Of a stretch of 64,000 nucleotides of DNA, positions 1,465-59,723 are shown piece by piece. Under the pieces are notes generated by a model. It was not told where the DNA came from and made no database searches. It saw nothing but the letters and a program-made list of their open reading frames with translations. Made by a program: the position numbers and the translations under genes. Position 1 is the stretch's first letter. Each line of letters opens with the position of its first letter. Origin of the DNA: Acidobacteriota bacterium. GTDB lineage: Bacteria; Acidobacteriota; Vicinamibacteria; Vicinamibacterales; 2-12-FULL-66-21. Location of the stretch: contig JBKOZS010000054.1 in assembly GCA_046726015.1 (NCBI GenBank), positions 460 through 64,459 of the forward strand, read 5' to 3'.

Positions 1465-1541
1465 GTTGACGGTTTGCAGTTTGCGGTTTGCAGTTCGCGG
1501 TCTGCAGTTCGCGGTTTGCGGTTTGCCGTTTACGGTTGACG
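1465..1541. repeat. 11 direct tandem heptamers GTTYGCR between divergent iolD and the ABC ATPase gene
   Basis: Read directly: GTTGACG GTTTGCA GTTTGCG GTTTGCA GTTCGCG GTCTGCA GTTCGCG GTTTGCG GTTTGCC GTTTACG GTTGACG. Confidence 0.9.
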
Positions 1542-1638
1542 GCTCGCCCGCTGATGGCGCGGGCTGACGTCGGGAATGCTAGCAGATTGCGCGAGAAGCG
1601 AGCAAAGCTACGTACGCTAGACTGACCGCCTGCTTCGC

Positions 1639-3144
1639 ATGACTGACACCACTCAGTCCCCTCCCCTGCTGCAAATGCGGGGCATCTGCAAACAGTTTCC
1701 CGGCGTCCGCGCGCTGGACGATGTGGCGTTCGAGCTGCAACGGGGAGAGGTGCACGTGCTGCTCGGGGAGAACGGGGCGGGGAAGTCGACGCTGATGCGC
1801 GTGCTCAGCGGCGCGTGCGCGCGGGACGCGGGCGAGATCCTGATTGATGGCCACGCCGTGTCGCTGCACTCGCCTCGCGAAGCGCAAGCCCTCGGCATCA
1901 GCACGATTTACCAGGAGTTCAACCTCGTCCCGCATCTTTCGGCTGCGGCAAACATCTTTCTCGGTCGCGAGCCGCTGCACGGCGCCGGGATCATCAACCG
2001 GAGGAAGCTGACGGCCGACGCCGCTCGGCTGCTGCAGGGTCTCGGCACGCCGATCGACCCGTCGGCCCGCGTGAAGGATCTCAGCGTCGCCGAGCAGCAG
2101 ATGGTGGAAGTCGCCAAGGCCCTGTCGATCGACGCGCGAATCCTGATTATGGACGAGCCGACGTCGGCGCTGACGGAATCCGAGATCGACGAGCTGTTCA
2201 ACGCCATTGGCCGGCTGACGAAGCGCGGCGTCGCGGTCATCTATATCTCGCACCGCATGGAGGAGCTCGCGCGCGTCGGGCACCGGGCGACGGTCATGCG
2301 TGACGGGCGTTACATCGCGACGCGTCCGCTTCCCTGCCCCATTCCCGATCTGGTGCGATTGATGGCGAACCGCGACGTCACGCACCACTTCCCGCCAGCC
2401 ACGCGAAAACGCGGCGCCCCACTGCTGCACGTCGAGGGGATTTCGCGTGGTCCGCGCTTGCGCGACGTCAGCTTCACGCTGCATCGAGGCGAGATTCTTG
2501 GCGTGGCGGGGCTGCTCGGCGCCGGCCGGACGGAACTCGCGCGCGCCATCGCCGGCGCCGACGTGCCTGAGCGCGGCCGCGTTGTGCTCGACGGCCGCCC
2601 GCTGCGAGTGCGCGCGCCGTCGGATGCGATCCGCGCGGGCATCGGCCTCGTCCCCGAGGATCGGAAGCGCCATGGGTTCGTGCCCGGACAGAGCGTGGCT
2701 GCCAATCTCGCGCTCCCGCAGCTGCGGCGGCTCGCGCGAGGCGGCGTGATCGATCGACGCCAGGAACGCGCCCTGGCCCTGCGATGGATCGACGAGCTCC
2801 GCATCAAGACACCGGACGCGACAGCCCGCGTGCTGACGCTCAGCGGCGGCAACCAGCAGAAGGTCGTCCTCGGCAAATGGCTGGCGGCCGGCGCCGACGT
2901 GCTCATTGTCGACGAACCCACGCGCGGCATCGACGTCGCAGCAAAGATGGAGATCTATCAGCTCCTCGATCGCCTGGCCGCGAACGGTGCCGGCATCCTG
3001 ATGATCTCGTCGGACCTGCCGGAGGTCCTGGGCATGAGCGATCGCGTGCTCGTGATGCACCAGGGACGGCTGCAAGCCGTGCTCGATGCGCACGACGCTA
3101 CGCAGGAGCGAGTCCTCCATGCGGCGCTGGGGCTGGCTTCCTGA
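1639..3144 (+). CDS. sugar ABC transporter ATP-binding protein (duplicated ABC domains, RbsA/MglA type)
   Basis: 501 aa. Walker [10 protein letters not shown], a second ABC half ([10 protein letters not shown]) and LSGGNQQKV signatures. The stop overlaps the permease start (TGATG). Confidence 0.9.
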
Positions 3145-4085
3145 TGCGCCACGTCTTTACCGCCTCCGGGCGGAGGCTGGGCACGCTCGCCGGCCTCTTC
3201 GGCCTGTGCCTGCTGCTGTGGGCGCTCACGCCGCATTTCCTGACCGTCTCGAACCTGCTCAATGTCCTCGAGCAAACCTCGATCAATGCGGTGATTGCGG
3301 CAGGCATGACGTTCGTGATCATCTCGGGCGGGATCGATCTGTCCGTGGGATCCCTCGTCGCCGTAGCCGGGGTCGTCCTTGCCAGCACCTTGCACGCGGG
3401 AGTGCCGATTCCGATCGCGATCGCCGCTTCCCTCGCCGTGGGCTTTGGCTTTGGCGTTTTGAACGGTCTCGCGATTACCTGGGGTCGCCTGCCCCCGTTC
3501 ATCGCCACCCTGGGCATGATGAGCATTGCGCGCGGCTGTGCGCTGCTCTTCACCGAAGGGCGGCCGCTATCAGGCTTCGAACCAGCGTTCCGCGTGATTG
3601 CGACCGGGAGAGTGCTGGGAATCCCGGCGCCCGTGTTTCTCACAATCGTGGTGTATCTGCTGGCGCATTTCGTTCTGGCGGAAACGCGCTTCGGCCGCTA
3701 CGCCTATTCGATGGGAGGCAACGAGGAGGCCACGCGATTGTCGGGTGTCAACGTGCGGCTGCACAAGACACTCGTCTATGGCGTGTCCGGCCTCGCCAGC
3801 GCCGTTGCCGCGGTCCTGCTGACGGCCCGGCTCAACTCCGCTCAGCCGATCGCAGGCATCATGTACGAGCTGGACGCGATTGCCGCCGTCGTCATCGGCG
3901 GCACCAGCCTGATGGGGGGCGAAGGGGGCGTCGGCGGGACGCTGATTGGCGCGCTGATCATGGGCGTGCTGCGAAACGGCTTGAACCTGCTCGGCGTCTC
4001 GTCGTTCGTGCAGCAGATCGTGATTGGTCTCGTTATCGTTGTGGCAGTACTTATCGACACGGTATTGAAATCGAGAAAGGCGTGA
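3144..4085 (+). CDS. sugar ABC transporter permease (RbsC/BPD_transp_2 type)
   Basis: The in-frame ATG at 3144 gives [26 protein letters not shown].., a multi-TM protein with GGIDLSVGS and TSLMGGEGG motifs. The track ORF 2784..4085 is an upstream extension that overlaps the ATPase gene. Confidence 0.9.
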
Positions 4086-4113
4086 CGGACGGGATCCTAG
4101 CGGCAGCTGTTTA

Positions 4114-4222
4114 GCGGAGAGATCGGGAGAGCGGAGAGAGCGGGTCTTTGGGGGTAACGGAACCTCCGATTCAGCAACAGCAAACCAAGCTGCCGCCCTC
4201 TCCGAGCTCTCTGTGCTCTCGG
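4114..4222. repeat. imperfect long inverted repeat built from GAGAGCG-type units (left arm 4114-4144, right arm CTCTCCG-type 4192-4222)
   Basis: GCGGAGAGATCGGGAGAGCGGAGAGAGCGGG ... GCCGCCCTCTCCGAGCTCTCTGTGCTCTCGG, inside the permease-to-binding-protein spacer. Confidence 0.6.
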
Positions 4223-4258
4223 TGATCAAGGGGCCCATTTGAAGAATTGGGAGCGACC

Positions 4259-5233
4259 ATGTTTCACTCACGTGTTCGGTGGATAGGAGTCCTGTTCGTT
4301 CCGGCGCTCGCATTCACGGTGGCGTGCAACCGGGAGACGCCTGGAGGCTCCTCCGGCAGGCCACGCGTCGCGCTCGTCATGAAGACACTGAACAACCCGT
4401 TCTTCATCGACATGCAACGGGGCGCCGAGCAGGCGGCCAAGGACCTGAACGTCGACCTTGTCGTGCAGGCGGCGGATCGCGAAACCGACGTCGAGCGCCA
4501 GATGCAGATCGTCGAGAACCTGATCCAGGCGCGTGTGAACGCGCTAGCGCTCACGCCCTCCGGCTCACGCGAGGTCGTTCCCGTGGTCGGCAAGGCCAAT
4601 GCGGCGAACATCCCGGTCGTGATCGTCGACACGCGACTCGATCAAAAGGCGGCTACCGATGCCGGCGTGAAGACGGCGAGCTTCGTGGGTTCCGATAACT
4701 ATCGTGGCGGCCAGATCATCGGGGAGTACCTGGTCAAGGTCTCGGACCGCCGCGCGAAGGTCGCCATCCTCGAAGGCATTCCCGGGCACGAAACGGGCGA
4801 TTCGCGCGTGCGCGGCTTCAAGGACGCCATCAAGGGCTCGCCGAACGTCACCATCGTCGCATCGCAGCCGGCGAACTGGGAACGCGACCAGGGGTTCAAT
4901 GTGTTTCAGAACATGCTGCAAGCACACGCTGACATCGACACGGTGTTTGCGTGCAACGACATCATGGCCCTTGGCGCGATCGAGGCCATTGCGGCGGCGG
5001 GCAAGGCGGGAAAGATCCGCGTGCTCGGGTTCGATGCGATTGATGATGCGCGGCGCGCCATTACCGACGGCAGGATGACGGCAACCGTCGCGCAGTATCC
5101 AGACGAGATGGGGCGCGCGGCGATCGAAGCGGCTGTCAAAGCGGTGAAGGGAGAACCGGTCGCGGCGGACATCGGCGTGCGCATCGGCCTGATTACCAAG
5201 GACAACGCCGCGAGGGAGAGTGACAAGAAATGA
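4259..5233 (+). CDS. periplasmic sugar-binding protein of ABC transporter (RbsB/Peripla_BP_4 type)
   Basis: ATG 4259 is preceded by GGGAG (4249-4253, 5 nt spacing). N-terminal signal/lipoprotein-like peptide ..LAFTVAC. Typical LNNPFF..VDTRLD..GSDNY..GFDA motifs. The track start at 4247 is a TTG 4 codons upstream. Confidence 0.85.
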   Translation: MFHSRVRWIGVLFVPALAFTVACNRETPGGSSGRPRVALVMKTLNNPFFIDMQRGAEQAAKDLNVDLVVQAADRETDVERQMQIVENLIQARVNALALTPSGSREVVPVVGKANAANIPVVIVDTRLDQKAATDAGVKTASFVGSDNYRGGQIIGEYLVKVSDRRAKVAILEGIPGHETGDSRVRGFKDAIKGSPNVTIVASQPANWERDQGFNVFQNMLQAHADIDTVFACNDIMALGAIEAIAAAGKAGKIRVLGFDAIDDARRAITDGRMTATVAQYPDEMGRAAIEAAVKAVKGEPVAADIGVRIGLITKDNAARESDKK

Positions 5234-6252
5234 AACTGAAGGTGGGACTGATCGGTCTCGGCCGGCTCGGGCACGTCTATGCCCGCGACCTGTCGTCGCG
5301 CCTGGCGGAAACGGCGCTCACGGCCGTCGCCGATACCAACGCGGCCCTCGCCAGCGATATCGCGGCGGAGTTTGACGTGCCGCGGTCGTATGGCAATCCC
5401 GAGGAGTTGCTCGCCGACCGGAACGTCGATGCCGCCGTCATCGTGAGCCCGACGCACACCCACAAGGACGTGGTGATTGCGGCGATGATGGCACGGAAGC
5501 CGACGTTCTGCGAGAAGCCGCTCGCGCTCTCGCTCGAGGAATGCCGCGCCATGGAACAGGCTGTCGCCACGAGCGGCGCCTTCTTTCAGATGGGGTTCAT
5601 GCGGCGCTTCGATCCGGGATACGCGGCGGCAAAGAAGCAGATCGATGAGGGCCGGGTGGGCCGCCCGGTCGTGTTCAAGTCCACGTCGCGCGATCCCTAC
5701 AGGCCGAGCCTGGAATACGCGAACCCCGCCAGCAGCGGCGGTATCCTCGTGGACATGGGCATCCACGACTTCGATCTCGCGCGGTGGTTCATGGGGGACG
5801 TCAAGAGCGTGACCGCGATTGGCGGCGTGCTCGCCTATCCGGAGATGGCATCGGTGGGCGACATCGACAACGCCATTACCACTCTGATCTTTGCTGACGG
5901 GCGTCTCGGCGTGATCGATCTCACGCGCAACGGGATCTACGGATATGACATTACGACCGAGCTCCTCGGCACCGAGGGCACCGTTCGCGTCGGCTATCTG
6001 CGCGAGACTCCCGTCCTGACGATGACCAAGAATAGCGTCGCCCACGACACCGTGCCCTACTTCATGGAACGGTTCGAGCGCGCCTACACGTTGCAGCTGC
6101 AGAATTTCGCGCAGAACGTGCTGCACGATCGGCAGCCTCCGATCACGATTCGTGACGGTGTCGAGGCGTTGCGGGTCGCGCTTGCGGCGACGAAAGCTTA
6201 CAAGTCCGGGCAGCCGGTCGCGGTCGATAGCATTACCAGCGAGGGGCCATGA
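5230..6252 (+). CDS. iolG: inositol 2-dehydrogenase-like Gfo/Idh/MocA oxidoreductase
   Basis: 340 aa. N-terminal Rossmann motif VGLIGLGRLG and FCEKPLA motif. ATGA overlaps with both neighbours. It sits between the sugar importer and iolB. Confidence 0.7.
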   Translation: MKLKVGLIGLGRLGHVYARDLSSRLAETALTAVADTNAALASDIAAEFDVPRSYGNPEELLADRNVDAAVIVSPTHTHKDVVIAAMMARKPTFCEKPLALSLEECRAMEQAVATSGAFFQMGFMRRFDPGYAAAKKQIDEGRVGRPVVFKSTSRDPYRPSLEYANPASSGGILVDMGIHDFDLARWFMGDVKSVTAIGGVLAYPEMASVGDIDNAITTLIFADGRLGVIDLTRNGIYGYDITTELLGTEGTVRVGYLRETPVLTMTKNSVAHDTVPYFMERFERAYTLQLQNFAQNVLHDRQPPITIRDGVEALRVALAATKAYKSGQPVAVDSITSEGP

Positions 6253-7109
6253 TGGCACGCACAGTGAAGCTTCGATCGCGCGTTGCCGGATCGCGCGAAT
6301 CGCGCGTACTGATCAGCGTAACTCCGCAGCAGGCCGGCTGGCGCTACGTGAAGTTTGCGGTGCGCCAGATCGCGCCGAAGGATTCGTGGCGCGGCAGCAC
6401 GTCGAACGAGGAGCTCTGCCTCGTTCTTCTGGAGGGCCGCTGCCGCGTGTCGTGGGACGGTGTCGAGGCCGATATCGGCCCGCGCCGCGACGTCTTCAGC
6501 AGCTATCCACACGCGGTGTACCTGCCGAGGAAAACGCCATTCAGCGTAGACGCGATCGACCGCACCGTGATCGCGGACTGCCGCGCGCCGGCAAGCGCGG
6601 ACCATGCGCCGCGCGTGATCTCGCCGCAGGACTGCGGCTTCGAGATTCGCGGCGGCGGGAATGCGACGCGACAGATTGTCGACATCCAGCCGCCGACGTT
6701 TCCGGCGCAGCGCCTGATGATCTGCGAGGTGTTCACGCCCAGCGGCAACTGGTCCAGCTATCCGCCGCACAAGCACGACAAGCACAATCCGCCGTCGGAG
6801 GCCGATCTCGAAGAGGTGTATTACTACCGCTTCAAGGATCCGGACGCGTATGGCATTCAGCGGTTGTATGGTCCAGGGGATCGCGGCGATCAGGCGCTGA
6901 CGGTGCGCAGCGGCGACCTCGTGCTGGTGCGAGACGGCTACCATCCGTTCGTCGCGGCGCATGGCTACGACGCGTACTACCTGAACGTGCTTGCGGGCAG
7001 CGCACGCAGCATGGCCGCCAGCGATGACCCAAGGTATGCGGGTTTCAGGGCAAGATGGCCCGAACCGGATCCGCGAGTGCCGGTCGTCGCACCACCGAGG
7101 GTGTCTTGA
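6249..7109 (+). CDS. iolB: 5-deoxy-glucuronate isomerase (KduI/IolB family)
   Basis: 286 aa. GNWSSYPPHKHD...LEEVYYYRF is the motif block I recognise from IolB. Confidence 0.85.
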   Translation: MMARTVKLRSRVAGSRESRVLISVTPQQAGWRYVKFAVRQIAPKDSWRGSTSNEELCLVLLEGRCRVSWDGVEADIGPRRDVFSSYPHAVYLPRKTPFSVDAIDRTVIADCRAPASADHAPRVISPQDCGFEIRGGGNATRQIVDIQPPTFPAQRLMICEVFTPSGNWSSYPPHKHDKHNPPSEADLEEVYYYRFKDPDAYGIQRLYGPGDRGDQALTVRSGDLVLVRDGYHPFVAAHGYDAYYLNVLAGSARSMAASDDPRYAGFRARWPEPDPRVPVVAPPRVS

Positions 7110-7113
7110 ACAA

Positions 7114-7285
7114 TCGAAGAGTCGAAGGAAGACGAAGGGTCGAAGGAACGCTCAACTAACCAACGGTCGAAGGAGAAATCGAAGGAGTAATCGAAGGGAG
7201 CACCAAAGAGAAAGATCGAAGGGGAGAAATCGAAAAAACCGAATGGAAGCTCCTTCGACTCTTCGCTCCCCTTCGACTCCTTCGA
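7114..7285. repeat. purine-rich array of about 9 TCGAAGG units followed by about 4 inverted CCTTCGA units
   Basis: 7 exact TCGAAG plus 2 variants between 7114 and 7236. CCTTCGA, CTTCGC, CTTCGA and CCTTCGA lie between 7251 and 7285, ending 21 nt before the ADOP ATG. Confidence 0.85.
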
Positions 7286-7306
7286 TTGAAAGGCCGCGGG
7301 CAAACG

Positions 7307-9685: not shown

Positions 9686-9688
9686 GAA

Positions 9689-19128: not shown

Positions 19129-19245
19129 CTCGGCTCAAGGCTCAGGGCTCAAGGCTGGCTCAGGGCTTAATTTAAGACTTACGGCTTAAGCCGGCGCGTG
19201 CCTTGAGTCGCGGCCTGAGCCATGAGTCATAAGCCATGAGCCGAG
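19129..19245. repeat. 117-nt imperfect palindrome of GCTCARG units / CYTGAGC units filling the whole spacer between convergent bshC and the ArgH-like gene (candidate bidirectional terminator)
   Basis: CTCGGCTCAAGGCTCAGGGCTCAAGGCTGGCTCAGGGCTTAA...TTAAGCC..GCCTTGAGTCGCGGCCTGAGCCATGAGTCATAAGCCATGAGCCGAG. It runs from stop codon to stop codon. Confidence 0.8.
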
Positions 19246-35706: not shown

Positions 35707-35712
35707 GAGGCG

Positions 35713-35763: not shown

Positions 35764-35798
35764 CCGGCGCCTCAGGCGATCAGCCGCGGCGCCTCTCT

Positions 35799-36539
35799 CT
35801 ACAGGTCCGACCACAGGAACTGCAGCACGCCAATCGCGACGATCGCGAGCGCGTCGGCGCGCAGCGTGCGGCGGCCGAGCGTAATCGGCACCCATCCCGC
35901 GCGCACGGCCGTCTCGATCTCTTCCGGCGCCCAGCCCCCTTCTGGTCCCACGAGCAGCGTTGATGAGGCCGGGCGTCGTCCCTGCAACGCCGCGACGGGA
36001 TGCCCTTCAACGCTGACGCTGGGTTCAACCAGCATCAACCGCATCTCGGCGTTGTCCTGGACGATCAATTCGTCGAACGGCGTGCCATTGCCAATCACCG
36101 GGAGAACGGCGCGCCGGCACTGTTTTGCCGACGCCACGGCAATGCGGCGCCAGCGATCGGCCGCCTGCCCTTCCGTGAGCGCTTTCATACGGACCGTGGT
36201 ATGCGCGGTGACGACCGGCTCGATTGCCGCCACGCCCATCATCGTGGCGTCGCGGACGACCTCTTCCATCTTCTCCCCTTTGAGTACCGCCTGCGCGAGC
36301 GTGAGCCGCACGACCGGCTCCGGCGCTGCGCTGATCTCTTCGAGAAGGTGCACGGAGGCCCCTTCACGGCTGACGCGCTCGATGCGCGCCCGGTACTCGC
36401 GGCCGTTGCCATCGAACACGGCAATCTCGTCGCCGAAGCGCAGCCGAAGTACGTTGGTGAGGTGATGCGTTTCCTCGGCAGAGAGCGACGCCGTGTTGGA
36501 AGCGGGATCGAGGTCGGTGGCCAGGAACCGCGGGAGCAT
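35799..36539 (-). CDS. rsmE: 16S rRNA (uracil1498-N3)-methyltransferase RsmE
   Basis: MLPRFLATDL.. start (ATG 36539; alternative ATG 36551). C-terminal LLVGPEGGWAPEEIE...LGRRTLRA block. The track ORF start at 36629 is an upstream extension. Confidence 0.85.
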   Translation of the reverse strand: MLPRFLATDLDPASNTASLSAEETHHLTNVLRLRFGDEIAVFDGNGREYRARIERVSREGASVHLLEEISAAPEPVVRLTLAQAVLKGEKMEEVVRDATMMGVAAIEPVVTAHTTVRMKALTEGQAADRWRRIAVASAKQCRRAVLPVIGNGTPFDELIVQDNAEMRLMLVEPSVSVEGHPVAALQGRRPASSTLLVGPEGGWAPEEIETAVRAGWVPITLGRRTLRADALAIVAIGVLQFLWSDL

Positions 36540-36549
36540 GGGGGTGGCC

Positions 36550-36555
36550 ATTATA
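36550..36555 (-). promoter_or_regulatory. candidate -10 box TATAAT, 10 nt upstream of rsmE ATG 36539
   Basis: Minus strand reads ctcTATAATggccacccccATG. No Shine-Dalgarno sequence lies in between. Confidence 0.4.
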
Positions 36556-36595
36556 GAGTGGGGCCAGAACTCCCGACGAGGGCGCAAGAATCCGC

Positions 36596-36601
36596 TATAC
36601 T
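36596..36601 (+). promoter_or_regulatory. candidate -10 box TATACT, 10 nt upstream of the kinase TTG start
   Basis: gcTATACTcaacgcacacTTG. It forms a compact divergent pair with the rsmE -10 box 40 bp away. Confidence 0.35.
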
Positions 36602-36611
36602 CAACGCACAC

Positions 36612-37598
36612 TTGCTCTTCAAGGGACAAACGCTAGGGAAGTACAAGATCATCGCGCCGCTCGGCAGCGGCGGGTTTGGTACTGTCTACCTTGCACAGGA
36701 CACCTGGATCGACAAGAAGGTTGCGATCAAGGTGCCGCACCGGCAGGGGCTCGACTTCGGTGAACTGCTTCGCGAGCCTCGCCTGCTGGCGTCCGTCAGT
36801 CATCCCAACATCGTCGCGATCACCACGGCGGAGAAGCAGGACAACGTCTTCTTCATCGTGATGGAGTACGTGCAGGGAGAAACGCTCGAGAACATCATTG
36901 CCCTGCGCGGCTCGCTCGAGCTGAACCGGGCGCTCGATTTCACCTGCCAGATCTGCAACGCGGTCGATCACGCGCACCGGCAGGGCGTCATCCATCGCGA
37001 CCTGCGTCCCGCGAACGTGCTCGTCACGGAACACGACATGCTGAAGGTTGCCGACTTCGGCACGTCGCGCTTCCTGGAAATCGCCGCGCACGGCACCACG
37101 GTGATCGGCAGTCCGCCCTACATGGCACCCGAACAGTTTCATGGCAAGGCGGTGTTCGCGTCGGACCTCTACTCGCTGGGCGTGACGATGTACCAGATGC
37201 TCACGGGGCTGCTGCCGTACGACACACCGGCGCCGGCGGACCTGGACAAGCTGATGTCAGGGGAGCTGGTCTCGCCGCCGCGGCTCAAGAATCCGTCGAT
37301 TCCCAAGCCAATCAGCGACATCGTCATGAAGGCGATGGCGCCGGACCCGTCGCAACGGTACCAGCGCGCGACCGACCTCATGGAAGACGTGCTCGCCGCG
37401 AGGAACGCGACACGAACGCCGCCCGCTGGCGCCCTGGCCCGCCCCGCCGCGGGCCCGCGCGCAGGACGCGACGATGCACAGAGCATTCAGAGCCGGTTGC
37501 GCGCGCGAGAGGCGCCCGCCGCCCGCTTCTGCTGGCACTGCCGCAAGCCGCTGCACGCGCGCACGAACCGCTGCCCCTTCTGCGGCGAGAAGCAGTAG
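36612..37598 (+). CDS. Ser/Thr protein kinase (canonical Hanks type) with C-terminal zinc-ribbon
   Basis: LGSGGFGTVY, VAIKVP, HRDLRPANVLV, DFGTSR and YMAPEQ are all present. C-terminal CWHCRKPL..CPFCG. The only upstream in-frame start not overlapping rsmE is TTG 36612. The track ORF from 36000 is an antisense extension over rsmE. Confidence 0.85.
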   Translation: MLFKGQTLGKYKIIAPLGSGGFGTVYLAQDTWIDKKVAIKVPHRQGLDFGELLREPRLLASVSHPNIVAITTAEKQDNVFFIVMEYVQGETLENIIALRGSLELNRALDFTCQICNAVDHAHRQGVIHRDLRPANVLVTEHDMLKVADFGTSRFLEIAAHGTTVIGSPPYMAPEQFHGKAVFASDLYSLGVTMYQMLTGLLPYDTPAPADLDKLMSGELVSPPRLKNPSIPKPISDIVMKAMAPDPSQRYQRATDLMEDVLAARNATRTPPAGALARPAAGPRAGRDDAQSIQSRLRAREAPAARFCWHCRKPLHARTNRCPFCGEKQ

Positions 37599-37630: not shown

Positions 37631-37696
37631 GCGGAGAGGCCGGTTCGGAGAGGACGGCTAATTGTTTTTAAAACAAAATAGACCTGATCTCTCCGC
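37631..37696. terminator. inverted repeat GCGGAGAG (37631-37638) / CTCTCCGC (37689-37696) around an AT-rich near-palindrome TTGTTTTTAAAACAA; candidate bidirectional terminator
   Basis: Read directly in the 132-nt spacer between the convergent kinase gene and the giant gene. A further GAGAGG unit lies at 37647-37654. Confidence 0.5.
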
Positions 37697-37730
37697 GCTC
37701 ACCGTGGAAACAGGCGCTGCGATTCAACTC

Positions 37731-43927: not shown

Positions 43928-43953
43928 GGGCTCGAGGCTCAGGGCTCAGAGCC
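43928..43953. repeat. GGCTCRG heptamer units (GGGCTCGAGGCTCAGGGCTCAGAGCC)
   Basis: Read directly. Same unit family as 19129-19245 and 59679-59723. Confidence 0.7.
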
Positions 43954-44040: not shown

Positions 44041-44077
44041 GAGACTCGGGATTCGGGACTCAGGACTCCTCGGGACC
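44041..44077. repeat. GAYTCRG heptamer units (GAGACTCGG GATTCGG GACTCAG GACTCCT CGGGACC)
   Basis: Read directly in the HMBD/ilvE divergent spacer. Confidence 0.7.
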
Positions 44078-44189
44078 ACCCCACGCTTGGCACTGTGCGG
44101 AAACGCCGGGGGTGGTTAAGATGGAGAAGGCTCGAACTATGCGACCGAGCCCGCGTGTGGGGCGAAGCCCCAGTGATAAGGAGCGTTAG

Positions 44190-51910: not shown

Positions 51911-51967
51911 CGCGTATCGCCGCACATCGCGCCTCGCGCACATCGCACCTCGCGCATCGCGCCTCGC
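51911..51967. repeat. tandem CGCRCMT heptamer array
   Basis: CGCGTAT CGC CGCACAT CGCGCCT CGCGCACAT CGCACCT CGCGCAT CGCGCCT CGC, read directly. Confidence 0.75.
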
Positions 51968-51968
51968 T

Positions 51969-51974: not shown

Positions 51975-51980
51975 CACTGA

Positions 51981-52361
51981 ATGCGATTGGACGTCTGGCT
52001 CGACGTCAGTTGTCTCTTCAAGACCCGGAGCGAGGCGCAGAAGGCCTGCAAGGGAGGCAAGGTCGACGTGAACGGCCAGGCCGCCAAGCCACATCGTGAA
52101 GTGGCACCCGGTGATGAGATCGAGATTACGCGTACGTTTGGAAGACGCCAGAAGGTGATCGTGAAGGGACTGGCCGAGCAGCACGTCCCCAGGGCGGAGG
52201 CGCGCCTGCTTTACGAGGATCTGACGCCAAAGCCAACAGCGGAAGAGCTCGAGATGCTCCGCATTGCGCGTCTGGCGGCGCCGTTTACGCGTCCGGCATC
52301 AGCGGGCGCACCGGACCGCCGGGAGCGTCGCATGCTGCGGCGCCTCAAAGGGCGCGGCTGA
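51981..52361 (+). CDS. RNA-binding S4-domain protein (Hsp15/HslR-like)
   Basis: 126 aa. Starts MRLDVWLDVSCLFKTRSEAQKACKGGKVDVNGQAAKP (S4 fold). Basic C-terminal tail. Confidence 0.8.
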   Translation: MRLDVWLDVSCLFKTRSEAQKACKGGKVDVNGQAAKPHREVAPGDEIEITRTFGRRQKVIVKGLAEQHVPRAEARLLYEDLTPKPTAEELEMLRIARLAAPFTRPASAGAPDRRERRMLRRLKGRG

Positions 52362-52366
52362 ACCGA

Positions 52367-52473
52367 CCACGGATGGACACGGAATCACGCGGATTCTCCC
52401 GCAAATGCGCGCGACCGGGGGCCTTCCCGCGCCTTCGCGCCTCCGATCCGTGTCCCTCCGTGTGAGTCCGTGG
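52367..52473. repeat. long imperfect inverted repeat of CACGGA-containing units (52367-52396) and TCCGTG units (52441-52473)
   Basis: CCACGGATGGACACGGAATCACGCGGATTC ... CTCCGATCCGTGTCCCTCCGTGTGAGTCCGTGG. Confidence 0.7.
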
Positions 52474-52479
52474 TAGAAT
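52471..52479 (+). promoter_or_regulatory. extended -10-like promoter TGGTAGAAT for rpsT
   Basis: TGnTAGAAT lies 46 nt upstream of the rpsT ATG and is followed by an unusually AT-rich leader. Confidence 0.45.
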
Positions 52480-52525
52480 CAATGGTTTGCTAACCCTTAA
52501 ACATTGAGCATTTAGCATTTTCTCT

Positions 52526-52798
52526 ATGGCTAGTCACGCTTCAGCACTCAAGGCCCACCGTCAGAACATCGTCCGCCGCGAGGCGAACCGCCAGCTCCGC
52601 AGCCGCCTTCGTGGCGCGCTCCGAAGCATCCGCGCCGCCATCGACGCCGGGGATCCGGCGCAGGTCAAGGACGCGCTCCGCAGCACAATCTCGCTGGTCG
52701 ACAAGATGGCGGGCAAGCGCGTGATTCACCGCAACGCCGCCGCGCGCTACAAGTCGCGGCTTGCGAAGCGGGTGACGAAGAAGACCGCCACGGCGTAA
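52526..52798 (+). CDS. rpsT: 30S ribosomal protein S20
   Basis: 90 aa. Starts MASHASALKAHRQNIVRREANRQLRSRLR.. Basic helical protein typical of bS20. Confidence 0.95.
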   Translation: MASHASALKAHRQNIVRREANRQLRSRLRGALRSIRAAIDAGDPAQVKDALRSTISLVDKMAGKRVIHRNAAARYKSRLAKRVTKKTATA

Positions 52799-52835
52799 CG
52801 CGCCCGGCCTGAATCTCCGCGCTCGCTGCCCGACA

Positions 52836-53864: not shown

Positions 53865-53867
53865 TCA

Positions 53868-53933
53868 GATCCGTGTTATCCGTGAGATCCGCGGCTGTGA
53901 TCCGTGTGTTTCGGTGATCCGTGTGATCCGTGG
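53868..53933. repeat. six copies of (G)ATCCGYG filling the lptE-holA spacer
   Basis: GATCCGTGT TATCCGTGA GATCCGCGGCTGT GATCCGTGTGTTTCGGT GATCCGTGT GATCCGTGG. Confidence 0.85.
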
Positions 53934-54464
53934 TTAAAAGGCTTCCAGGATGGCGCTGACGACGGCGCGCGCGAATTCCGTGGCCATGCGTTCGAGCGCG
54001 TTGACGTCCTGTCCGAAAAAGGTTGAAGGATCGAGCGTGCTGTTGCCCGACGCGACATCGAACTCCTCGCGATACTGCATGGACGGATTCGCCCACAGGA
54101 CCTTGTTCGTTTTCAGGTCCTTGAACTCGACGCTGGCCGTCAAGATGAGCGCATAGCGTGTCGCCTGCTGCTGCTCGTTGAACGCGGCCGGCTGAATCGT
54201 GATCGAGGCAATCGCACCGGTCAGCAGCGCGTCGACACCCGTGGTCTCGGGAACAATCGTGTACTTGCCCCGGCCCAGGAACTCCGTGCGGACCTTGTCG
54301 GTCACGCGACGATCGACATCGAATATCGCCGTGTGGTTCGCGAACTGCGGTATCCCAATCCGATGAATGTATGACGGCAGAAACGATCCGCGACCCGCCA
54401 GCGAATATCCGCAGCCGGTCTGCGCGATCAGCGCCGCCATGATGACGATGCGCTTGATCATCAT
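53934..54464 (-). CDS. lptE: LPS-assembly lipoprotein LptE
   Basis: 176 aa. Lipobox ..[17 protein letters not shown] overlap with the leuS stop. Conserved position between leuS and holA. Confidence 0.8.
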
Positions 54465-57010
54465 TGCACCACGATGCTGACAAGCCGTCCGTTCGCCACG
54501 ACCACCTTCTTCACCGTGCGCCCCTGCAGGTGCGTGCGGATCTGCGGCTCGGCGAGCGCGGTTTCACGCAACTGTTCCTCGGTCGTGTCCGTCGGAACCG
54601 TGATCCGGCCGCGGAGCTTCCCGTTGATCTGAACCGGAACCACGATCTCCTCGGCTCTTGCGACCGATTCATCGTACGCAGGCCAGCCGGCGGCCGTAAT
54701 CCCGCCCGAGTGTCCGAGGCCTTCCCACAGCTCCTCTGCCATGTGCGGGACGAACGGGGACAGCATCAGCACCAGCGCTTCGATCGACTCCTTCAGCACG
54801 GCAATCGTGCCCGGCCGCTCGATGACCCCCACGTGATCCGATTCCTCGCCAGCCGGGCCGCATTGCGTACGACTGCAGAACGCGTACAACTCGTTGACGA
54901 GCTCCATCATCGCAGAGACCGCCGTGTTCAAATGGACGCGAGGGTCCAGATCGTGCGTGACCCGCTTGATGGTCTGGTGCGTCTTGCGGCGTAGCGCACG
55001 TTCCTCGTCATTGAGCTCGACGTCCGACGGCCCTGGAATCCCCAGTCCGCCAATCGTCTCGCTCAGCGAGTCCACGAGCCGCCAGACACGCGCCAGGAAC
55101 CGGAAGCTCCCTTCGAGCCCCGCATCGTTCCACTCGATCTCTTTCTCGGGCGGCGCCACGAAGATGACATAGAGCCGCAGGGCGTCCGCGCCGTACTTCT
55201 GGATCATGTCGTCGGGATCGACCACGTTTCCCTTGGACTTGGACATGACCTGGCCATTCTTCAGCACCATCCCTTGCGTCAGCAGACGATCGAACGGCTC
55301 GCTCAGGTGCGTCATCCCGAGGTCGCGAAACACGCGCGTGAAGAAACGCGAATAAATCAGGTGGAGGATCGCGTGCTCCACGCCTCCGACATAAAAGTCG
55401 ACCGGGCCCCAGTACCCGACCGTCACCGGATCGAACGGCAACTGGTCGTTGTGCGGATCGCAGAAGCGGAAGAAGTACCACGACGAGTCGACGAACGTGT
55501 CCATCGTGTCCGTCTCGCGGCGCGCCGGGCCGCCGCACTCCGGGCACGTCGCGTTCACGAACTCGGGGATCTGTGCGAGCGGGGAATCTCCACGCCCGGA
55601 GAATTCCGCCGTCTTCGGCAGTTCGACCGGCAGCTGGTCGTACGGCACCGGAACCATGCCGTCCTTCTCGCAGTAGAGCACTGGAATCGGGGTGCCCCAG
55701 TAGCGCTGACGCGAAATGCCCCAGTCCTTCAAACGGTATTGCACGGTGCCACGGCCGATGCTCCGCTTCTCGGCCGCTTCCGTCATGCGGCGGTTGGCCT
55801 CTTCCCAGTCGAGTCCGTTGAACTCACCCGACGCCACCAGTTTTCCCGCGCCCGGTTTGGCTTCGGTCATGGTTGCCGCGTCGAGCGGTTCACCGTCCGG
55901 CTGAACGACGATGGTAATCGGCAGCGCGTATTTCCGCGCGAACTCGAAATCGCGCTGATCGTGTCCGGGGACACCCATGACGGCGCCCGTGCCGTACTCG
56001 ATCAGGACGAAGTTCGCGATCCAGATCGGAACCGCCTGGCCGGTGAACGGATTGATTGCGCGGCGGCCGGTGTCGAAGCCTTCCTTTTCGACTTCCCCTT
56101 GCATGCGCGCGGAGCGATCCTGCGAGGTGAACTTCGCCACCTTCGCGCGGAATGCTTCCGGATCAGGCGAGCCGTCCGCGAACTCTCGGACGAGCGGATG
56201 CTCCGGAGCAACCACGATGAAGTTCGCGCCGTAGATGGTGTCGATCCGCGTCGTGAACACCTCGATGCCACCAGGCTGCGGCGTCGGTCGTCCACCGTCA
56301 GGGGCGAGCGGGAACGTGACGAACGCCCCGGCCGACCGTCCCACCCAGTTGCGCTGCATGGTGAGGACCTTGTCCGGCCACTCTCCCAGCAGCTCCATGC
56401 CATCGAGCAGTTCGTCGGCGTAGTGCGTGATGCGGAAGAACCACTGCTCCAGCTCGCGCGTGACGACCGGCGTGCCGCACCGCCAGCAGCCGCCGTTCAC
56501 GACCTGCTCGTTTGCCAGCACGGTCTGGCAGCTCGGACACCAGTTCACGCTGGACCGTTTGCGATACGCAAGGTCCCGCTCCAGCATCTTGAGGAAGATC
56601 CACTGGTTCCACTTGTAGTACTCGGGCAGGCAGGTGGCGATCTCGCGCTCCCAGCCGTAGCTGATGCCGATACGCTGGAGCTGCCCCTTCATGTGCGCGA
56701 TGTTCTGGAGCGTCCAGGCCTCCGGGTGCGTCCGGTTCTTGATCGCGGCGTTCTCGGCCGGCAGGCCGAACGCGTCCCATCCGAACGGGTGCAGGACGTT
56801 GAAGCCGCGCATCCGCTTCATGCGCGCGATGACGTCGCCGATCATGTAATTGCGCAGGTGACCGACGTGCGCGTGACCCGACGGGTACGCGAACATCTCG
56901 AGGCAGTAGTACTTCGGCTTCGAGGGGTCCTCCGTCACCTCGAACGCGCGCTCGGCAGTCCAGCAGTCCTGCCACTTCTTCTCGATAGCCTGGGGCTTGT
57001 AGTCGGGCAC
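54461..57010 (-). CDS. leuS: leucine--tRNA ligase
   Basis: 849 aa. HVGH (HIGH-type) motif in [19 protein letters not shown]-type VMSKSKGN, and the CP1 editing domain. GTG start. Confidence 0.97.
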
Positions 57011-57019
57011 GATCCTTAA

Positions 57020-57025
57020 ATTATA
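57020..57025 (-). promoter_or_regulatory. candidate -10 box TATAAT, 9 nt upstream of the leuS GTG start
   Basis: Minus strand reads gacgaTATAATttaaggatcGTG. Confidence 0.4.
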
Positions 57026-57140
57026 TCGTCAGTCCGTCATGCGGCTCGGAGCGAGAACGGTGTGTCGTTGCGCGAGCCGCAACGGAACTGGCGCGCCACG
57101 GGCGCGCCGGGGGGTCCGGCGGGGCGAAGCCCCGGTCTGA

Positions 57141-58043
57141 TTAGAAAAGCGCAACCGTGGCGTCGAGGCAGGCTCCGAGCGCGTCGAGGTCGTACCCTCC
57201 TTCGGTCACGAAGGCGATCGGGCAGTGTCGATCGGCAACGGTCTTGAGATGAGCGACGATCGCCGCGTAGCCTTCCGTGGTCACGCGCATCGAGGCGAGC
57301 GGGTCGTCGGCATGCGCGTCGTAGCCGGCGGACACGAGCAGCAGCTCGGGTGCGAACTCGTCGAGCCTGCCGACAATGGTCTTGTACGCCCGGTCGTACA
57401 CAGCGTCCGTGGCTCCAGCCGCAAGCGGCACGTTCATCGTGTAGCCCTTCCCGGGTCCTCTGCCGACTTCATCCGCCGCACCGGTGCCAGGATAGAACGG
57501 AAACTGATGGGTCGATACGTAAAGGACGCGGGGATCGTCGTAGAACATCCACTGCGTTCCGTTGCCGTGATGCACGTCGATGTCGACCACTGCGACACGC
57601 GACAGGCCGCGTGCGATCGCCGCGGCTGCCGCGACGGCGACGTTGTTGAACAGGCAGAACCCCATCGCCCGGTCCCGTTCGGCGTGATGCCCGGGCGGCC
57701 TCACAAGCGCAAAGGCGGGCTTCCGAGTCTCGAGCGCGTGTTCCATCGCCTGCACGGCCGCGCCAGCCGCGAGCAGCGCGATGTCATACGACTCTGGCGA
57801 TGTGAAGGTGTCCGGATCGAGCATCACTGCGCGGCCCGCCGTCGCCGTAATCGCGTTGATGTAGGCCGAATCGTGAACGCGCGCCAGCTCTTCGCGCGTC
57901 GCGGATCGGGGCTCGATGACCCGCACGCCCTTCTCCTTCCAGCGAGAGGCAACCTCGCTGAACACGCGGGCGCGCTCGGGACGCTCGGGATGGCCGGGTG
58001 GCGTCGTGTGTTCCTCGAAGCGTTCAGAAGCAATGAATAGCAT
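57141..58043 (-). CDS. histone deacetylase-family (class II HDAC/AcuC/Aph-like) deacetylase
   Basis: ATG 58043 gives MLFIASERFEEHTTPPGHPERPERARV.. Has ..RPPGHHAE.., DIDVHHGNGTQ and ..VSAGYDAH.. The track start at 58112 is an upstream extension. Confidence 0.9.
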   Translation of the reverse strand: MLFIASERFEEHTTPPGHPERPERARVFSEVASRWKEKGVRVIEPRSATREELARVHDSAYINAITATAGRAVMLDPDTFTSPESYDIALLAAGAAVQAMEHALETRKPAFALVRPPGHHAERDRAMGFCLFNNVAVAAAAAIARGLSRVAVVDIDVHHGNGTQWMFYDDPRVLYVSTHQFPFYPGTGAADEVGRGPGKGYTMNVPLAAGATDAVYDRAYKTIVGRLDEFAPELLLVSAGYDAHADDPLASMRVTTEGYAAIVAHLKTVADRHCPIAFVTEGGYDLDALGACLDATVALF

Positions 58044-58055
58044 CGCCGATCGCCG

Positions 58056-58061
58056 TATACT
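58056..58061 (+). promoter_or_regulatory. candidate -10 box TATACT, 9 nt upstream of the response-regulator ATG
   Basis: ccgTATACTctgaagacaATG, within the 27-nt HDAC/REC divergent spacer. Confidence 0.35.
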
Positions 58062-58070
58062 CTGAAGACA

Positions 58071-58460
58071 ATGGTACTGGAAGCCCCGGCGGATAGTACA
58101 GCCCGGGTTCACCGTATTCTGGTGGTTGACGACGACGAGACGCTGCTCGACGCTGTCGCCCGGGGGTTACGAGCAGGCGGGCAACTCGTCGTCCCGTGCG
58201 GATCCTTTGAAGCGGCGCGAGAAGTGCTGCGGCAGCAGACCTTCGACGTGCTCATCACCGACGTGCGGCTACGGGCGTCGAACGGCCTGCAACTCGCGAT
58301 TGTCGCGCGCCAGATGAACCCCGCGATGCAGTTGATCGTGTTTTCGGGGTTCGACGACCCGGTGCTCCGCGCGGAGGCCGGCAAGATCGACGCGATGTAT
58401 TTGGTGAAGCCGGTCACCGCTGCGACACTGCTCAAGCTGATCCACGGACAGGAAAGTTAA
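58071..58460 (+). CDS. single-domain response regulator (receiver only)
   Basis: 129 aa. ILVVDDDE, phospho-acceptor context VLITDVRL, VFSG and LVKP are all present. No output domain. Confidence 0.85.
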   Translation: MVLEAPADSTARVHRILVVDDDETLLDAVARGLRAGGQLVVPCGSFEAAREVLRQQTFDVLITDVRLRASNGLQLAIVARQMNPAMQLIVFSGFDDPVLRAEAGKIDAMYLVKPVTAATLLKLIHGQES

Positions 58461-58565
58461 AAAGGTCCGCGCGATCACCCGATCGAATGGACCGGCCCCT
58501 GGTGCGCCATCAAGACGCGATAGGTGTCCTCGGTCGGCGCGGCGCGCGAATGTGCCAGGAAGACT

Positions 58566-58589
58566 AAAGTCTGCCTCGGCGCAGACTTT
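58566..58589. terminator. perfect 9-bp hairpin AAAGTCTGC-ctcggc-GCAGACTTT (candidate bidirectional terminator)
   Basis: Read directly. It lies 106 nt after the receiver-gene stop and 31 nt after the candidate small minus-strand ORF. Confidence 0.4.
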
Positions 58590-58619
58590 GTGCCTCCGCG
58601 CGGCGCCACAATTGCGGTA

Positions 58620-58703
58620 TTAGATCTCGGTGAGCAGCGTGTAGACGAACCCGGCGGCCACGCGAGCGGCGCGTGTCAGGTGTCGAATTGTCAGGGTGAT
58701 CAT
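58620..58703 (-). CDS. candidate 27-aa small protein MITLTIRHLTRAARVAAGFVYTLLTEI
   Basis: ATG is preceded by GAAGGCG. 21 of 26 non-start codons end in G/C, as in the surrounding real genes. A hairpin follows. No homology recognised, so the call is speculative. Confidence 0.25.
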   Translation of the reverse strand: MITLTIRHLTRAARVAAGFVYTLLTEI

Positions 58704-58886
58704 GGCTTCGCCTTCAACGCGACGATGACGCTTCGGTCCGAATCGACGCGTCTCGAGGATCTTTCAGTGTTCGATCGTTGCGGCGTCACTACGCGAACGG
58801 CGTACCAATGCGGGGTGGGGCGTGCAGAGCGCGAAGGATCAACGCGCGCACAAGTGCCGAGGATTTGTTCTGCCTGTGGGTGGCTT

Positions 58887-59552
58887 CTATCCCCTGTCAG
58901 CGAGCAGTGCAGTGGTGCGCGTCTCGAGCGCGGCGAGTGACGCTTCAAGTTCGCGACGCTTCGACTCGATCGCATCTTCGGACGTATCAGCGACGGCGAT
59001 TGGGGCGCCAATCGCGATGGCAGCAGAGCTGAACGGTTTGGGGATCTGCGTCCGATCCCAGCTGTTCGCTGTCCAGAAGCGAGAGGATTCGATGTGAAAC
59101 GGCAGCAGCGGATTGCCTGTGGCGCCAGCCAACCAGACGGCGCCAGGCTGCGCCACCCGCGCGGGGCCGCGCGGGCCGTCGAGCGTGAACGCCGCGGGTT
59201 TCCCGGACGCCATGCCCCGCTTCAACTGCACGAGCGCACGAACGCCGCCGCGCGACGATGAACCGCGCGACGTGCCGTACCCGAACCGCTCGATGATGCG
59301 AGCGATCCACTCGCCGTCGAAGTTCTCACTGGTGATGACGACAATGCCGCGGTCGCGCCAGAACAGCGTGGCCGCGAGGATGCGACCGTGCCAGAAGGCG
59401 AAGATTGGCAGGCGGCCCGATTCGACGATCGCGTCGTAATGGTGAAGGCCGTCGACGCGCCATTTGAGCGTGGAGCCCAGCGCCGCAATTATCGGAGAGC
59501 CGACAGCCGCAATGACGCCGGCTTTGCGCTGCTGCGCGGAGGTCAAGCTCAT
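58887..59552 (-). CDS. DUF374-type lysophospholipid acyltransferase-like protein
   Basis: ATG 59552 gives MSLTSAQQRKAG.. Has ..IFAFWHGR..VITSENFDGEWIA..GYGTSRGSSSRGG..AFTLDGPRGP.. The track start at 59660 is an extension into the repeat region. Confidence 0.8.
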   Translation of the reverse strand: MSLTSAQQRKAGVIAAVGSPIIAALGSTLKWRVDGLHHYDAIVESGRLPIFAFWHGRILAATLFWRDRGIVVITSENFDGEWIARIIERFGYGTSRGSSSRGGVRALVQLKRGMASGKPAAFTLDGPRGPARVAQPGAVWLAGATGNPLLPFHIESSRFWTANSWDRTQIPKPFSSAAIAIGAPIAVADTSEDAIESKRRELEASLAALETRTTALLADRG

Positions 59553-59616
59553 GTCTCTTGAACGCCGGGTCTCTACGGCGGCGCCCCGAACAATCGCTGA
59601 GGGCGCCGTATCAATT

Positions 59617-59672
59617 ACGAATGACGAATGCCAAATGCCAATACCATGAAAGTTGGGCATTCGGCATTGACG
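59617..59672. repeat. hairpin of heptamer units ACGAATG ACGAATG CCAAATG CCAATAC / TTGGGCA TTCGGCA TTGACG
   Basis: Read directly. Same GAATGCC/GGCATT unit family as 35713-35763. Confidence 0.8.
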
Positions 59673-59678
59673 CGCAGA

Positions 59679-59723
59679 GCCTTGAGCCCTGAGTCCTAAG
59701 CCCTGAGTCCTGAGTCCTGAGCC
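59679..59723. repeat. 6-7 direct GYCCTRA heptamers (GCCTTGA GCCCTGA GTCCTAA GCCCTGA GTCCTGA GTCCTGA GCC)
   Basis: Read directly, starting 3 nt downstream of the ETF-QO stop. It is the reverse complement of the GCTCAGG family at 19129-19245. Confidence 0.85.

Follow-up and report, generated by a model that had tools for sequence, protein, structure and literature searches.

We examined a 64-kb stretch of contig JBKOZS010000054.1 (assembly GCA_046726015.1), hereafter the window, in which tandem arrays with a basic period of 7 nt occupy many of the spacers between genes. The alanyl- and leucyl-tRNA synthetases (AlaRS and LeuRS) place the window in Vicinamibacterales, Acidobacteriota. Its GC content is 65%, and a gene map drawn from codon usage assigns 59.9 kb to coding sequence and 4.07 kb to spacers. 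Genes recognized with Pfam include carAB, argH, alaS, leuS-lptE-holA, hrcA-grpE-dnaJ-prmA, rpsT, and an etf cluster. An initial annotation had listed arrays of short units in these spacers, and we found every array on its list at or within a few bases of the position it gave.

Periodicity was scored in 28-nt lag windows, with at least 20 matches required at lag p. At lag 7, 96 such windows were intergenic and none were coding; at lag 14, the counts were 67 and 0. Periods 4, 5, 8, 10, 11, 13, and 15 gave no lag windows in spacers or genes, period 3 gave a single one, in coding sequence, period 6 gave a few, all coding, and periods 9 and 12 gave a few. The intergenic confinement proposed in the initial annotation is thus borne out. 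We also compared the tandem scores of spacers of at least 50 nt (n = 22) with those of 200 dinucleotide shuffles each. In 10 of the 22, the score was reached by no more than one of the 200 shuffles, in agreement with the enrichment that had been anticipated. Together the arrays cover about 860 nt of the roughly 4,070 nt of spacer, or about 20% of the intergenic DNA, and they fill about half of the larger spacers.

The unit length had been described as 7-10 nt. Period 7 stands: array A, array K-right, the tail of element E, and the arms of D keep perfect 7-nt phase, and Tandem Repeats Finder (TRF) and lag-7 scans place 11, 7, 5, and 4-5 units head to tail in register. The longer periods do not, as the apparent 9-12 nt spacings in B, C, I, and J consist of a 6-7 nt core (GAGAGC, TCGAAGG, or CACGGA) followed by filler of variable length. 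Higher-order structure of 14 and 21 nt also occurs within arrays. As had been noted, the period is not a multiple of 3 and the arrays adjoin start and stop codons; the median distance from the upstream stop codon to the first unit is about 4 nt, and some arrays occupy an entire spacer. The arrays are as follows, with strand given for the two elements to which one was assigned.

1465..1541: array A, 11 GTTYGCR units in perfect 7-nt phase with 14-nt alternation (0/200 shuffles)
4110..4147: B, left arm, GAGAGC(G) core with 1-3 nt filler, 3.6 copies
4192..4226: B, right arm, reverse-complement units, TRF consensus CTCTCCGTG, 3 copies
7114..7240: C, forward units, TCGAAGG core, about 9 copies with fillers of 0-18 nt
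7250..7285: C, reverse arm, CCTTCGA, 4 copies
19129..19167: D, left arm, GGCTCAR, 4-5 copies, directly after the bshC TGA
19199..19245: D, right arm, YTGAGCC-type units, ending right at the argH (minus strand) stop codon
35707..35798, plus strand: element E, filling the convergent prmA/rsmE spacer (fold z -2.51)
37631..37700: F, a weak member, CGGAGAGG x2 and CTCTCCG x1 (z -1.86, 8/200)
43928..43953: G1, GGCTCRR x3, in a divergent spacer
44041..44077: G2, GACTCGG, GATTCGG, and GACTCAG units in the orientation of G1 and unpaired with it
51911..51967: H, CGCRCMT, about 6-7 copies, unstructured (z +0.91)
52367..52393: I, left arm, NNNCACGGA x3, beginning 5 nt past the stop codon of the S4-domain gene
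52440..52473: I, right arm, TCCGTG units, ending just before the rpsT extended -10 box TGGTAGAAT
52503..52523: mini-array, CATTKAG x3, in the rpsT leader
53868..53933: J, TCCGTG core x7 with fillers of 1-7 nt, unstructured (z -1.14)
59576..59672, minus strand: K-left, a second E-type two-hairpin element with a heptamer tail (z -4.44, 0/200)
59677..59723: K-right, AGYCCTG x7 (GRCTCAR on the minus strand), perfect phase with a 21-nt higher order

Two architectures can be distinguished, namely arrays of direct repeats only and inverted pairs of arrays that fold into strong stem-loops. The direct-only arrays A, G1, G2, H, J, and K-right are unstructured, with fold z scores of -1.1 to +2.1 relative to shuffles. 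Array A (z -0.55) lies in a divergent spacer between genes for a thiamine pyrophosphate (TPP) enzyme (minus strand) and an ABC ATPase (plus strand), and 1 nt separates its end from the minus-strand gene's ATG. Its units are more alike at lag 2 than at lag 1, and those at the edges (GTTGACG) are the most diverged. H ends 13 nt before the start of the S4-domain gene; the same spacer opens, right after the stop codon of the SLT gene, with GACTCAGGGCTT, which amounts to 1.7 units of the GRCTCAR family. J takes up the entire spacer between lptE and holA, starting 0 nt past the stop codon and leaving 3 nt ahead of the start codon. K-right, 2 nt past the ETF-QO stop codon, is less structured than its shuffles (z +2.10).

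Six or seven of the approximately 17 arrays in the window are paired, which agrees with the earlier proposal that reverse-complement units often turn a spacer into a hairpin. The fold z scores of the inverted pairs are -5.48 for D, -4.78 for I, -4.44 for K-left, -4.01 for C, -2.95 for B, and -2.51 for E, and none of 200 shuffles folds as well as D, I, K-left, or C; for B, one does. The left arm of B begins 24 nt past the stop codon of an ABC permease gene. In C, the forward units begin 4 nt past the kduI/iolB stop codon and the reverse arm pairs with the first of them in a long stem-loop (dG -63.4). The outer 13 nt of D (GTGACTCGGCTCA and TGAGCCGAGTCAC) are a perfect inversion that includes both stop codons, while each arm has unit variants of its own, such as CATGG in the right arm only; the fold has a dG of -62.2. 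That of I has a dG of -59. In general, the arms are imperfect mirrors of unequal length, as in C, with about nine forward and four reverse units. F is a short stem between convergent genes and had been read as a second GAGAG array at 37631/37689. With two units on one side and one on the other, a tandem score reached by 73 of 200 shuffles and a fold z of -1.86, it is not significant.

Element E consists of a GAATGCC/GGCATT hairpin, an unpaired tail of four to five ATTYGRC units, and a second hairpin, GGCGCC. As rsmE (35799-36629, minus strand) is a real gene, with Methyltrans_RNA and PUA domains (E value 1e-36), the spacer that begins at 35707 ends at 35798. A plus-strand ORF at 36000-37598 overlaps rsmE; because of this overlap, and because its kinase domain begins at residue 215, the kinase gene must start later than 36000.

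The initial annotation had suggested that the arrays might serve as factor-independent terminators. No T-run follows any of the array hairpins, and a consensus scan for terminator-like and promoter-like sites found none in array spacers, with counts at the shuffle level. Canonical sigma-70 promoters or terminators within the arrays were also considered and rejected on the same shuffle-level counts. As the hairpins have no U-tracts, a role as canonical factor-independent terminators is not supported, although array stems at gene 3′ ends probably act as transcript-end structures. A rule that the purine-rich arm comes first in the hairpins was rejected (24 cases against 17, with 11 ties). Rfam gave no matches above the gathering threshold over the whole window, and a tRNA search also gave none; the match to a catalogued family that had been raised as an alternative was therefore not found in Rfam. 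Array-free spacers contain short GC-rich stem-loops, GGGGCGAAGCCCC at 44160-44175 and 57121-57136 of the window. Counterparts, GGGGTCTGACCCC, lie at 5340-5355 and 5413-5428 of a contig from a relative, L081. These stem-loops have no T-runs and may be ordinary transcript-end hairpins of the lineage.

The units fall into seven families over 11 spacers: GRCTCAR (D, G, K-right, and the fragment at the start of the H spacer), GCATTYG (E and K-left), CACGGA (I and J), GGAGAG (B and F), and singletons. With consensus units assigned by eye, five pairs among 11 arrays have identical consensus sequences, compared with 0.06 expected, and 0 of 4,000 simulations reached this number; the recurrence of unit families that had been reported thus holds. 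Most family members share the unit alone. The exception is E and K-left, which are homologous over 85 nt (79% identity, E value 2e-11) in an alignment that spans the non-periodic loop and the second GGCGCC hairpin. They have a common two-hairpin fold supported by two compensatory pairs, and define an element of about 85-97 nt. The earlier statement that the arrays have no fixed consensus was thus too strong.

The classes that had been set aside at the outset remain so. The arrays are not CRISPR, as their 7-12 nt units are contiguous and there are no 23-50 nt repeats with unique spacers. Nor are they MITEs (miniature transposable elements with terminal inverted repeats); the arms are inverted, but we found no flanking direct duplication and no fixed ends around D, E, or K-left. 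They also differ from classical repetitive extragenic palindromic (REP) sequences and bacterial interspersed mosaic elements in having no fixed 20-40 nt palindromic consensus and no Rfam match. No transposase, integrase, or REP-associated tyrosine transposase (RAYT) was recognized with Pfam among the genes of the window. G-quadruplex or Z-DNA potential was rejected as a common property; the units have no G-runs and only H alternates C and G.

A further statement, that no described class has this architecture, does not hold. The first notes on intergenic heptamer arrays date from 1990 for cyanobacteria and from 2007 for prokaryotes at large, according to the accounts of this literature cited here. 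As those accounts have it, heptanucleotides are the commonest long simple sequence repeats (SSRs) in repeat-rich prokaryotic genomes, which are scattered over phyla; these SSRs are intergenic, and polymerase slippage was proposed as their origin (Mrazek, Guo & Shah, 2007; PMC4679880, PMC4692102). The window arrays resemble them, as so described, in the excess of heptamers over neighboring periods, the confinement to non-coding DNA, and the head-to-tail arrangement. By the same accounts, that survey counted near-perfect repeats, whereas the window arrays are degenerate, include inverted pairs, and come from Acidobacteriota, where such arrays are not described in it. We found no reports of such arrays for Acidobacteriota in the searchable literature.

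Other known repeats share part of the architecture. Like the short tandemly repeated repetitive (STRR) sequences and heptamers of Nostoc and Anabaena, the window arrays comprise several families per genome, are intergenic, and often lie near starts or promoters; host phylum, GC content, and unit sequences differ, and the arrays are not STRR in the strict sense, which have heterocystous cyanobacteria as hosts. Inverted pairs are few in Anabaena (Rehm et al., 2015; PMC4692102), compared with the six or seven of about 17 here. In Nostoc, heptamer repeats affected recO/recF promoter output. The GGGAATC repeats of Xanthomonas are about 90% intergenic, sit much closer to the upstream ORF (about 28 nt from its end) than to the one that follows, are found mainly between genes that are convergent or co-oriented, and vary in length between related species (PMC4692102). 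They share with the window arrays high GC, a bias toward upstream ORF ends, and some inverted pairs (PMC4692102), but consist of one G-rich, quadruplex-prone unit at largely shared loci, whereas the window has at least seven families, none G-quadruplex-prone, and no positional conservation. The TAACTGA repeats of Beggiatoaceae form short intergenic arrays at many loci, also occur in unrelated phyla (MacGregor, 2015; PMC4679880), and, as here, often directly adjoin coding regions (PMC4679880). In contrast to the window, they have one dominant unit, lie mostly upstream of starts, and include one indirect repeat in 170 sets (PMC4679880).

Closest in architecture are the paired sites of Geobacter metallireducens, in which three to five tandem units of 7-9 nt lie on opposite strands at a variable distance (Aklujkar et al., 2009; PMC2700814). 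These sites, which are intergenic, are of several classes within one genome, and the sister species lacks them (PMC2700814). B, C, D, I, E, and K-left have this arrangement. Two units look alike by eye, which may be chance: TCTCCGTS[Y] and MTYCTGA of G. metallireducens resemble CTCTCCGTG at 4198-4224 and GYCCTGA at 59677-59723, respectively. The G. metallireducens sites differ in forming BLAST families with a fixed copy number of 3-5, and were interpreted, without a test, as having a role with IHF/HU (PMC2700814). REP sequences and their hairpin doublets (REPINs) are likewise extragenic and hairpin-forming, with genome-specific families that often lie between convergent or co-oriented genes, and E and K-left behave like two copies of a dispersed hairpin element of the REP type. 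REPs have a fixed consensus of 20-40 nt, no internal 7-nt periodicity, and an associated RAYT gene, while the window shows no fixed consensus and no RAYT among its genes. We conclude that the arrays are intergenic heptanucleotide repeats, a known class, of which the window is a dense and well-formed example.

We compared the window with other Vicinamibacterales. The nearest relative with retrievable DNA is L081, with a LeuRS 87% identical to that of the window and full synteny over HDAC-leuS-lptE-holA and rpsT-S4-SLT-alaS. No arrays occur at four orthologous spacers of L081, which measure 51, 84, 71, and 54 nt, compared with 69, 37, 164, and 124 nt in the window. Array hairpins are thus dispensable at orthologous junctions, and a conserved function at fixed loci is unsupported because the arrays are missing there. 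The rpsT extended -10 box TGGTAGAATCAAT is kept (window 52470-52485; L081 5760-5775, minus strand), while its surroundings all differ. Therefore, about 100 nt of CACGGA hairpin was added between the S4 stop codon and the promoter in the lineage of the window.

Other relatives contain arrays elsewhere. L207, with a LeuRS 82% identical, has arrays of other units at other positions, GTCGGGW x12 and CAGATTRC x4. In L203 and L207, heptamer arrays also lie in frame within a variable loop of leuS, between RVRF.. and IEVFTT; these are the only coding arrays in the relatives. The L203 array (GGCCCTC x5, 5739-5806) encodes the peptide GPRPSALGPRTS, and that of L207 (10701-10752) is CCGACAG x4. Peptides of the GPRTS type, like that encoded in L203, recur in the LeuRS loop of several further relatives, with loop lengths of 5-28 aa, and the leuS loop of the window retains a GACGNNN x3 relic at 56266-56304 (minus strand). 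A second loop of the LeuRS homologue P0060 (residues ~395-420) contains a direct 10-aa duplication (ASAQGSGAAD / ASAQGSGAAG).

The Vicinamibacterales contig L150 carries two of the window families at unrelated loci, as a GGCTCAA array of 8.6 copies and two GTTCGCG arrays. The stop codon of a 1285-aa ORF lies inside the GGCTCAA array (446-505), whose antisense strand gives TGA in three frames, and the longest form of this ORF starts inside a GTTCGCG array (4256-4341). Therefore, an array can provide the stop codon of an ORF and can mislead gene calling into N-terminal extensions that are false. The GTTYGCR arrays, three in all (window 1465-1541; L150 4256-4327 and 13883-13941), are each placed directly upstream of a gene start, with (CGCRAAC)n as their sense-strand sequence, which makes a C-rich, G-poor, unstructured leader; three of three are too few for a test.

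Overlaps between assemblies of the same species (L081/L082 and L203/L204) showed no difference in array length. In another Vicinamibacterales species, one indel of 211 nt distinguishes the 99.9%-identical assemblies L205 and L206; its site is a duplicated S4-domain gene and not a heptamer array. Adjoining the indel are REP-like palindromes, four perfect copies of AAACGGGGACAGTCCCCGTTT in one spacer (L205 14820-14985; L206 14820-14987).

Similar arrays extend well beyond this order. In 1.45 Mb of AlaRS neighborhoods from diverse bacteria, we found 21 strict period-7 arrays, mostly in Acidobacteriota metagenome-assembled genomes, among them a perfectly mirrored GTCGTCA pair in L005 and four arrays in L017. 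Chloroflexota (L075, with an inverted GATTGGA pair), Methylomirabilota, and some Gammaproteobacteria contain arrays as well. When metagenomes were scanned for GRCTCAR x3, at least 120 contigs of 33-71% GC matched. Among the matches listed, the GRCTCAR arrays are mostly intergenic, many of them 0-7 nt from a stop codon, and their contigs carry 17-25 other period-7 arrays per 100 kb, compared with 1.3 in the background and about 8 in the window; contigs with one array are thus 10-20 times richer in others. Part of the metagenome matches are eukaryotic or mark contig breaks, because AAACCCT telomere-type arrays and arrays at contig ends are present. Many long GRCTCAR arrays lie at the extreme ends of viral or isolate contigs (L208-L257 from IMG/VR; L161, L191, L193, and L202).

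Pairing is also widespread. Among 336 arrays at all collected loci, 21% have an inverted partner within 250 nt, compared with 1.8% of scrambled-unit controls, an 11-fold enrichment. One example is a GGCTCAR/YTGAGCC hairpin between dnaK and dnaJ in L084, whose DnaJ is only 38% identical to that of the window. In IMG/VR, 21-nt period-7 patterns of the real unit and two scrambles matched 50, 35, and 33 loci, and period-8 patterns of equal length matched one and eight; 7-mers are thus 4-50 times commoner. The chance expectation is one or two matches, a rough figure that assumes ~6e10 bases.

A fixed orientation to transcription was considered and rejected. In the window, GGCUCAR and NCACGGA are sense after every adjacent stop codon, yet this is not general, as high-GC contigs with a GRCTCAR array at a stop codon, among the matches listed, divide into 11 sense and eight antisense. 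We also looked for other window families (at least three units, at most two mismatches) in the listed GRCTCAR contigs; none co-occurred, and a second family was present in L150 only.

On balance, we favor as the probable explanation that the arrays are heptanucleotide repeats of the microsatellite type, driven by slippage, and that the hairpins became transcript-end structures secondarily. A short tandem duplication of a 7-nt word would arise in DNA free of reading-frame constraint. Slipped-strand mispairing or unequal exchange would then add or remove single units or blocks of 14 and 21 nt, while point mutations would degrade the units, most of all at the array edges. Growth would halt only where a gene would be damaged, so that arrays would come to fill spacers up to stop and start codons; inside genes, they would survive only in tolerant loops and in frame. 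Inverted pairs may form where the seed already belongs to an inverted repeat, for example a dispersed hairpin resembling a REP or a stem-loop at a 3′ end. The two arms would then hold the same slippage-prone duplex word and could expand independently. The resulting long stems at gene 3′ ends would probably become, secondarily, transcript-end or RNase-barrier stem-loops or insulators between neighboring genes, and at least one family may also spread as a larger unit by some copying route.

Several observations support slippage as the likely engine. Array formation is indifferent to the identity of the heptamer, as scrambled units array about as often as GRCTCAR in IMG/VR. The edges of array A are diverged, the arms of D have private variants (CATGG), those of C are unequal, and arrays cluster at the level of the genome. 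Further support comes from the restriction of period 7 and its multiples to spacers, the 14- and 21-nt order within arrays, the lack of arrays at the L081 spacers, the other units at other positions in relatives, the in-frame leuS arrays, the excess of 7-mers over 8-mers in IMG/VR, the absence of transposase, RAYT, and integrase genes from the window, and earlier studies, which describe the same bias in position and excess of heptamers and propose slippage. Copy number may be unstable, as the gain or loss of arrays between species at the L081 spacers suggests. A lineage-wide mutational propensity for 7-nt tandem duplications wherever reading frames permit fits the data. Some results nevertheless weigh against this explanation. 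The same few units recur within a genome, with GGCTCAA and GTTCGCG reappearing in L150 at unrelated loci; E and K-left are homologous through non-repetitive parts; and inverted partners far exceed the control. Slippage alone also leaves the choice of period 7 unexplained. Because simple slippage does not account for recurrence, the E/K-left pair, pairing, and period 7, we retained three alternatives, namely dispersal, protein binding, and termination.

An origin in chance low-complexity sequence or assembly error, which had been raised at the outset, has a negligible probability. Its sole point is that the source is a metagenome-assembled contig; shuffles rarely or never match the tandem scores, and not one lag-7 window occurs in 59.9 kb of coding sequence. 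Degenerate units, array lengths below that of a read, and the recurrence of similar arrays in many independent assemblies make an assembly artefact unlikely. A more substantial alternative, though an unlikely one, is that the arrays are non-autonomous REPIN- or MITE-like elements copied by an enzyme encoded elsewhere and later modified by slippage. E and K-left, with their compensatory pairs, look like two copies of one two-hairpin element, unit families recur in the window and L150, the junction of a stop codon with CTCGGCTCAAGG after it is common to D and L144, and inverted partners are 11-fold enriched. Moreover, insertion sequences lie at a fixed distance from the comparable paired sites of G. 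metallireducens (PMC2700814). This copying model is hard to reconcile with the missing target-site duplications and fixed ends around E/K-left and D, the absence of transposase and RAYT genes from the window, the many family members that share only a unit, the many direct-only unstructured arrays, and the in-frame arrays inside leuS.

We consider it very improbable that the hairpin arrays are primarily selected terminators or insulators whose repetitive build is an easy route to long stems. Each of the seven hairpin-type elements is situated downstream of a stop codon, and the divergent spacers contain none of them, but this bias is not significant (P ~0.11; 0/7 in 5/22 spacers). Three of the convergent spacers hold a hairpin; L084 has its array hairpin between dnaK and dnaJ, where L115 has a canonical terminator after dnaK instead; and canonical hairpin-plus-T-run terminators are not enriched in the window, so another form may serve. 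Against selection for termination stand the missing U-tracts, the imperfectly matched and unequal arms, the absence of hairpins at the matching junctions of the syntenic relative, and the lack of structure in half of the arrays. It is also quite unlikely that the arrays are selected platforms for a protein that reads 6-7 nt registers and tunes neighboring genes. Candidates would be a nucleoid or IHF/HU-type global regulator like the one suggested for G. metallireducens, cold-shock proteins, CsrA-like GGA binders, or Rho acting on C-rich unstructured leaders. CspB binds heptamer registers, each genome has few unit families, the three GTTYGCR arrays lie upstream of gene starts with CGCRAAC in the sense strand, several units place a sense-strand GGA or GGAG after stop codons, and heptamer repeats changed Nostoc promoter output. 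However, the arrays are not conserved at orthologous spacers, related genomes use different units, the orientation of GRCTCAR is inconsistent among the matches listed, scrambled heptamers array about as often, units are degenerate within arrays, and three of three for GTTYGCR is not significant. GGA resembling Shine-Dalgarno or CsrA sites was rejected as a common theme, since it fails for GTTYGCR, GCATTYG, and CGCRCMT and has no support from orientation. Finally, it is distinctly unlikely that the arrays are built and spread by a dedicated, sequence-directed process rather than by passive slippage, one candidate being a trans-acting enzyme that copies hairpin-plus-heptamer modules in the manner of REPINs or adds units in steps of 7 nt. 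If true, every lineage would acquire a few unit families of its own; these would persist across species, as with GGCTCAR and GTTYGCR in the window and L150, and would work at gene ends as binding or insulating arrays specific to the lineage.

The finding alone opens no new mechanism, and the claim of an undescribed architecture is not upheld. For annotation, heptamer arrays account for N-terminal extensions that are spurious, for ORFs extending into spacers, and for contigs that break at repeats, and they should not be labeled as CRISPR, REP, or small RNA genes. For the biology of these genomes, the window is a high-density case, with about 20% of spacer DNA in arrays, in an uncultured soil lineage of Vicinamibacterales. 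The comparison adds that, in a large independent collection, arrays of arbitrary heptamers are far more frequent than arrays of octamers, that an inverted partner accompanies about one-fifth of arrays, 11 times the rate in the control, and that the array-forming process reaches tolerant protein loops, as in leuS.

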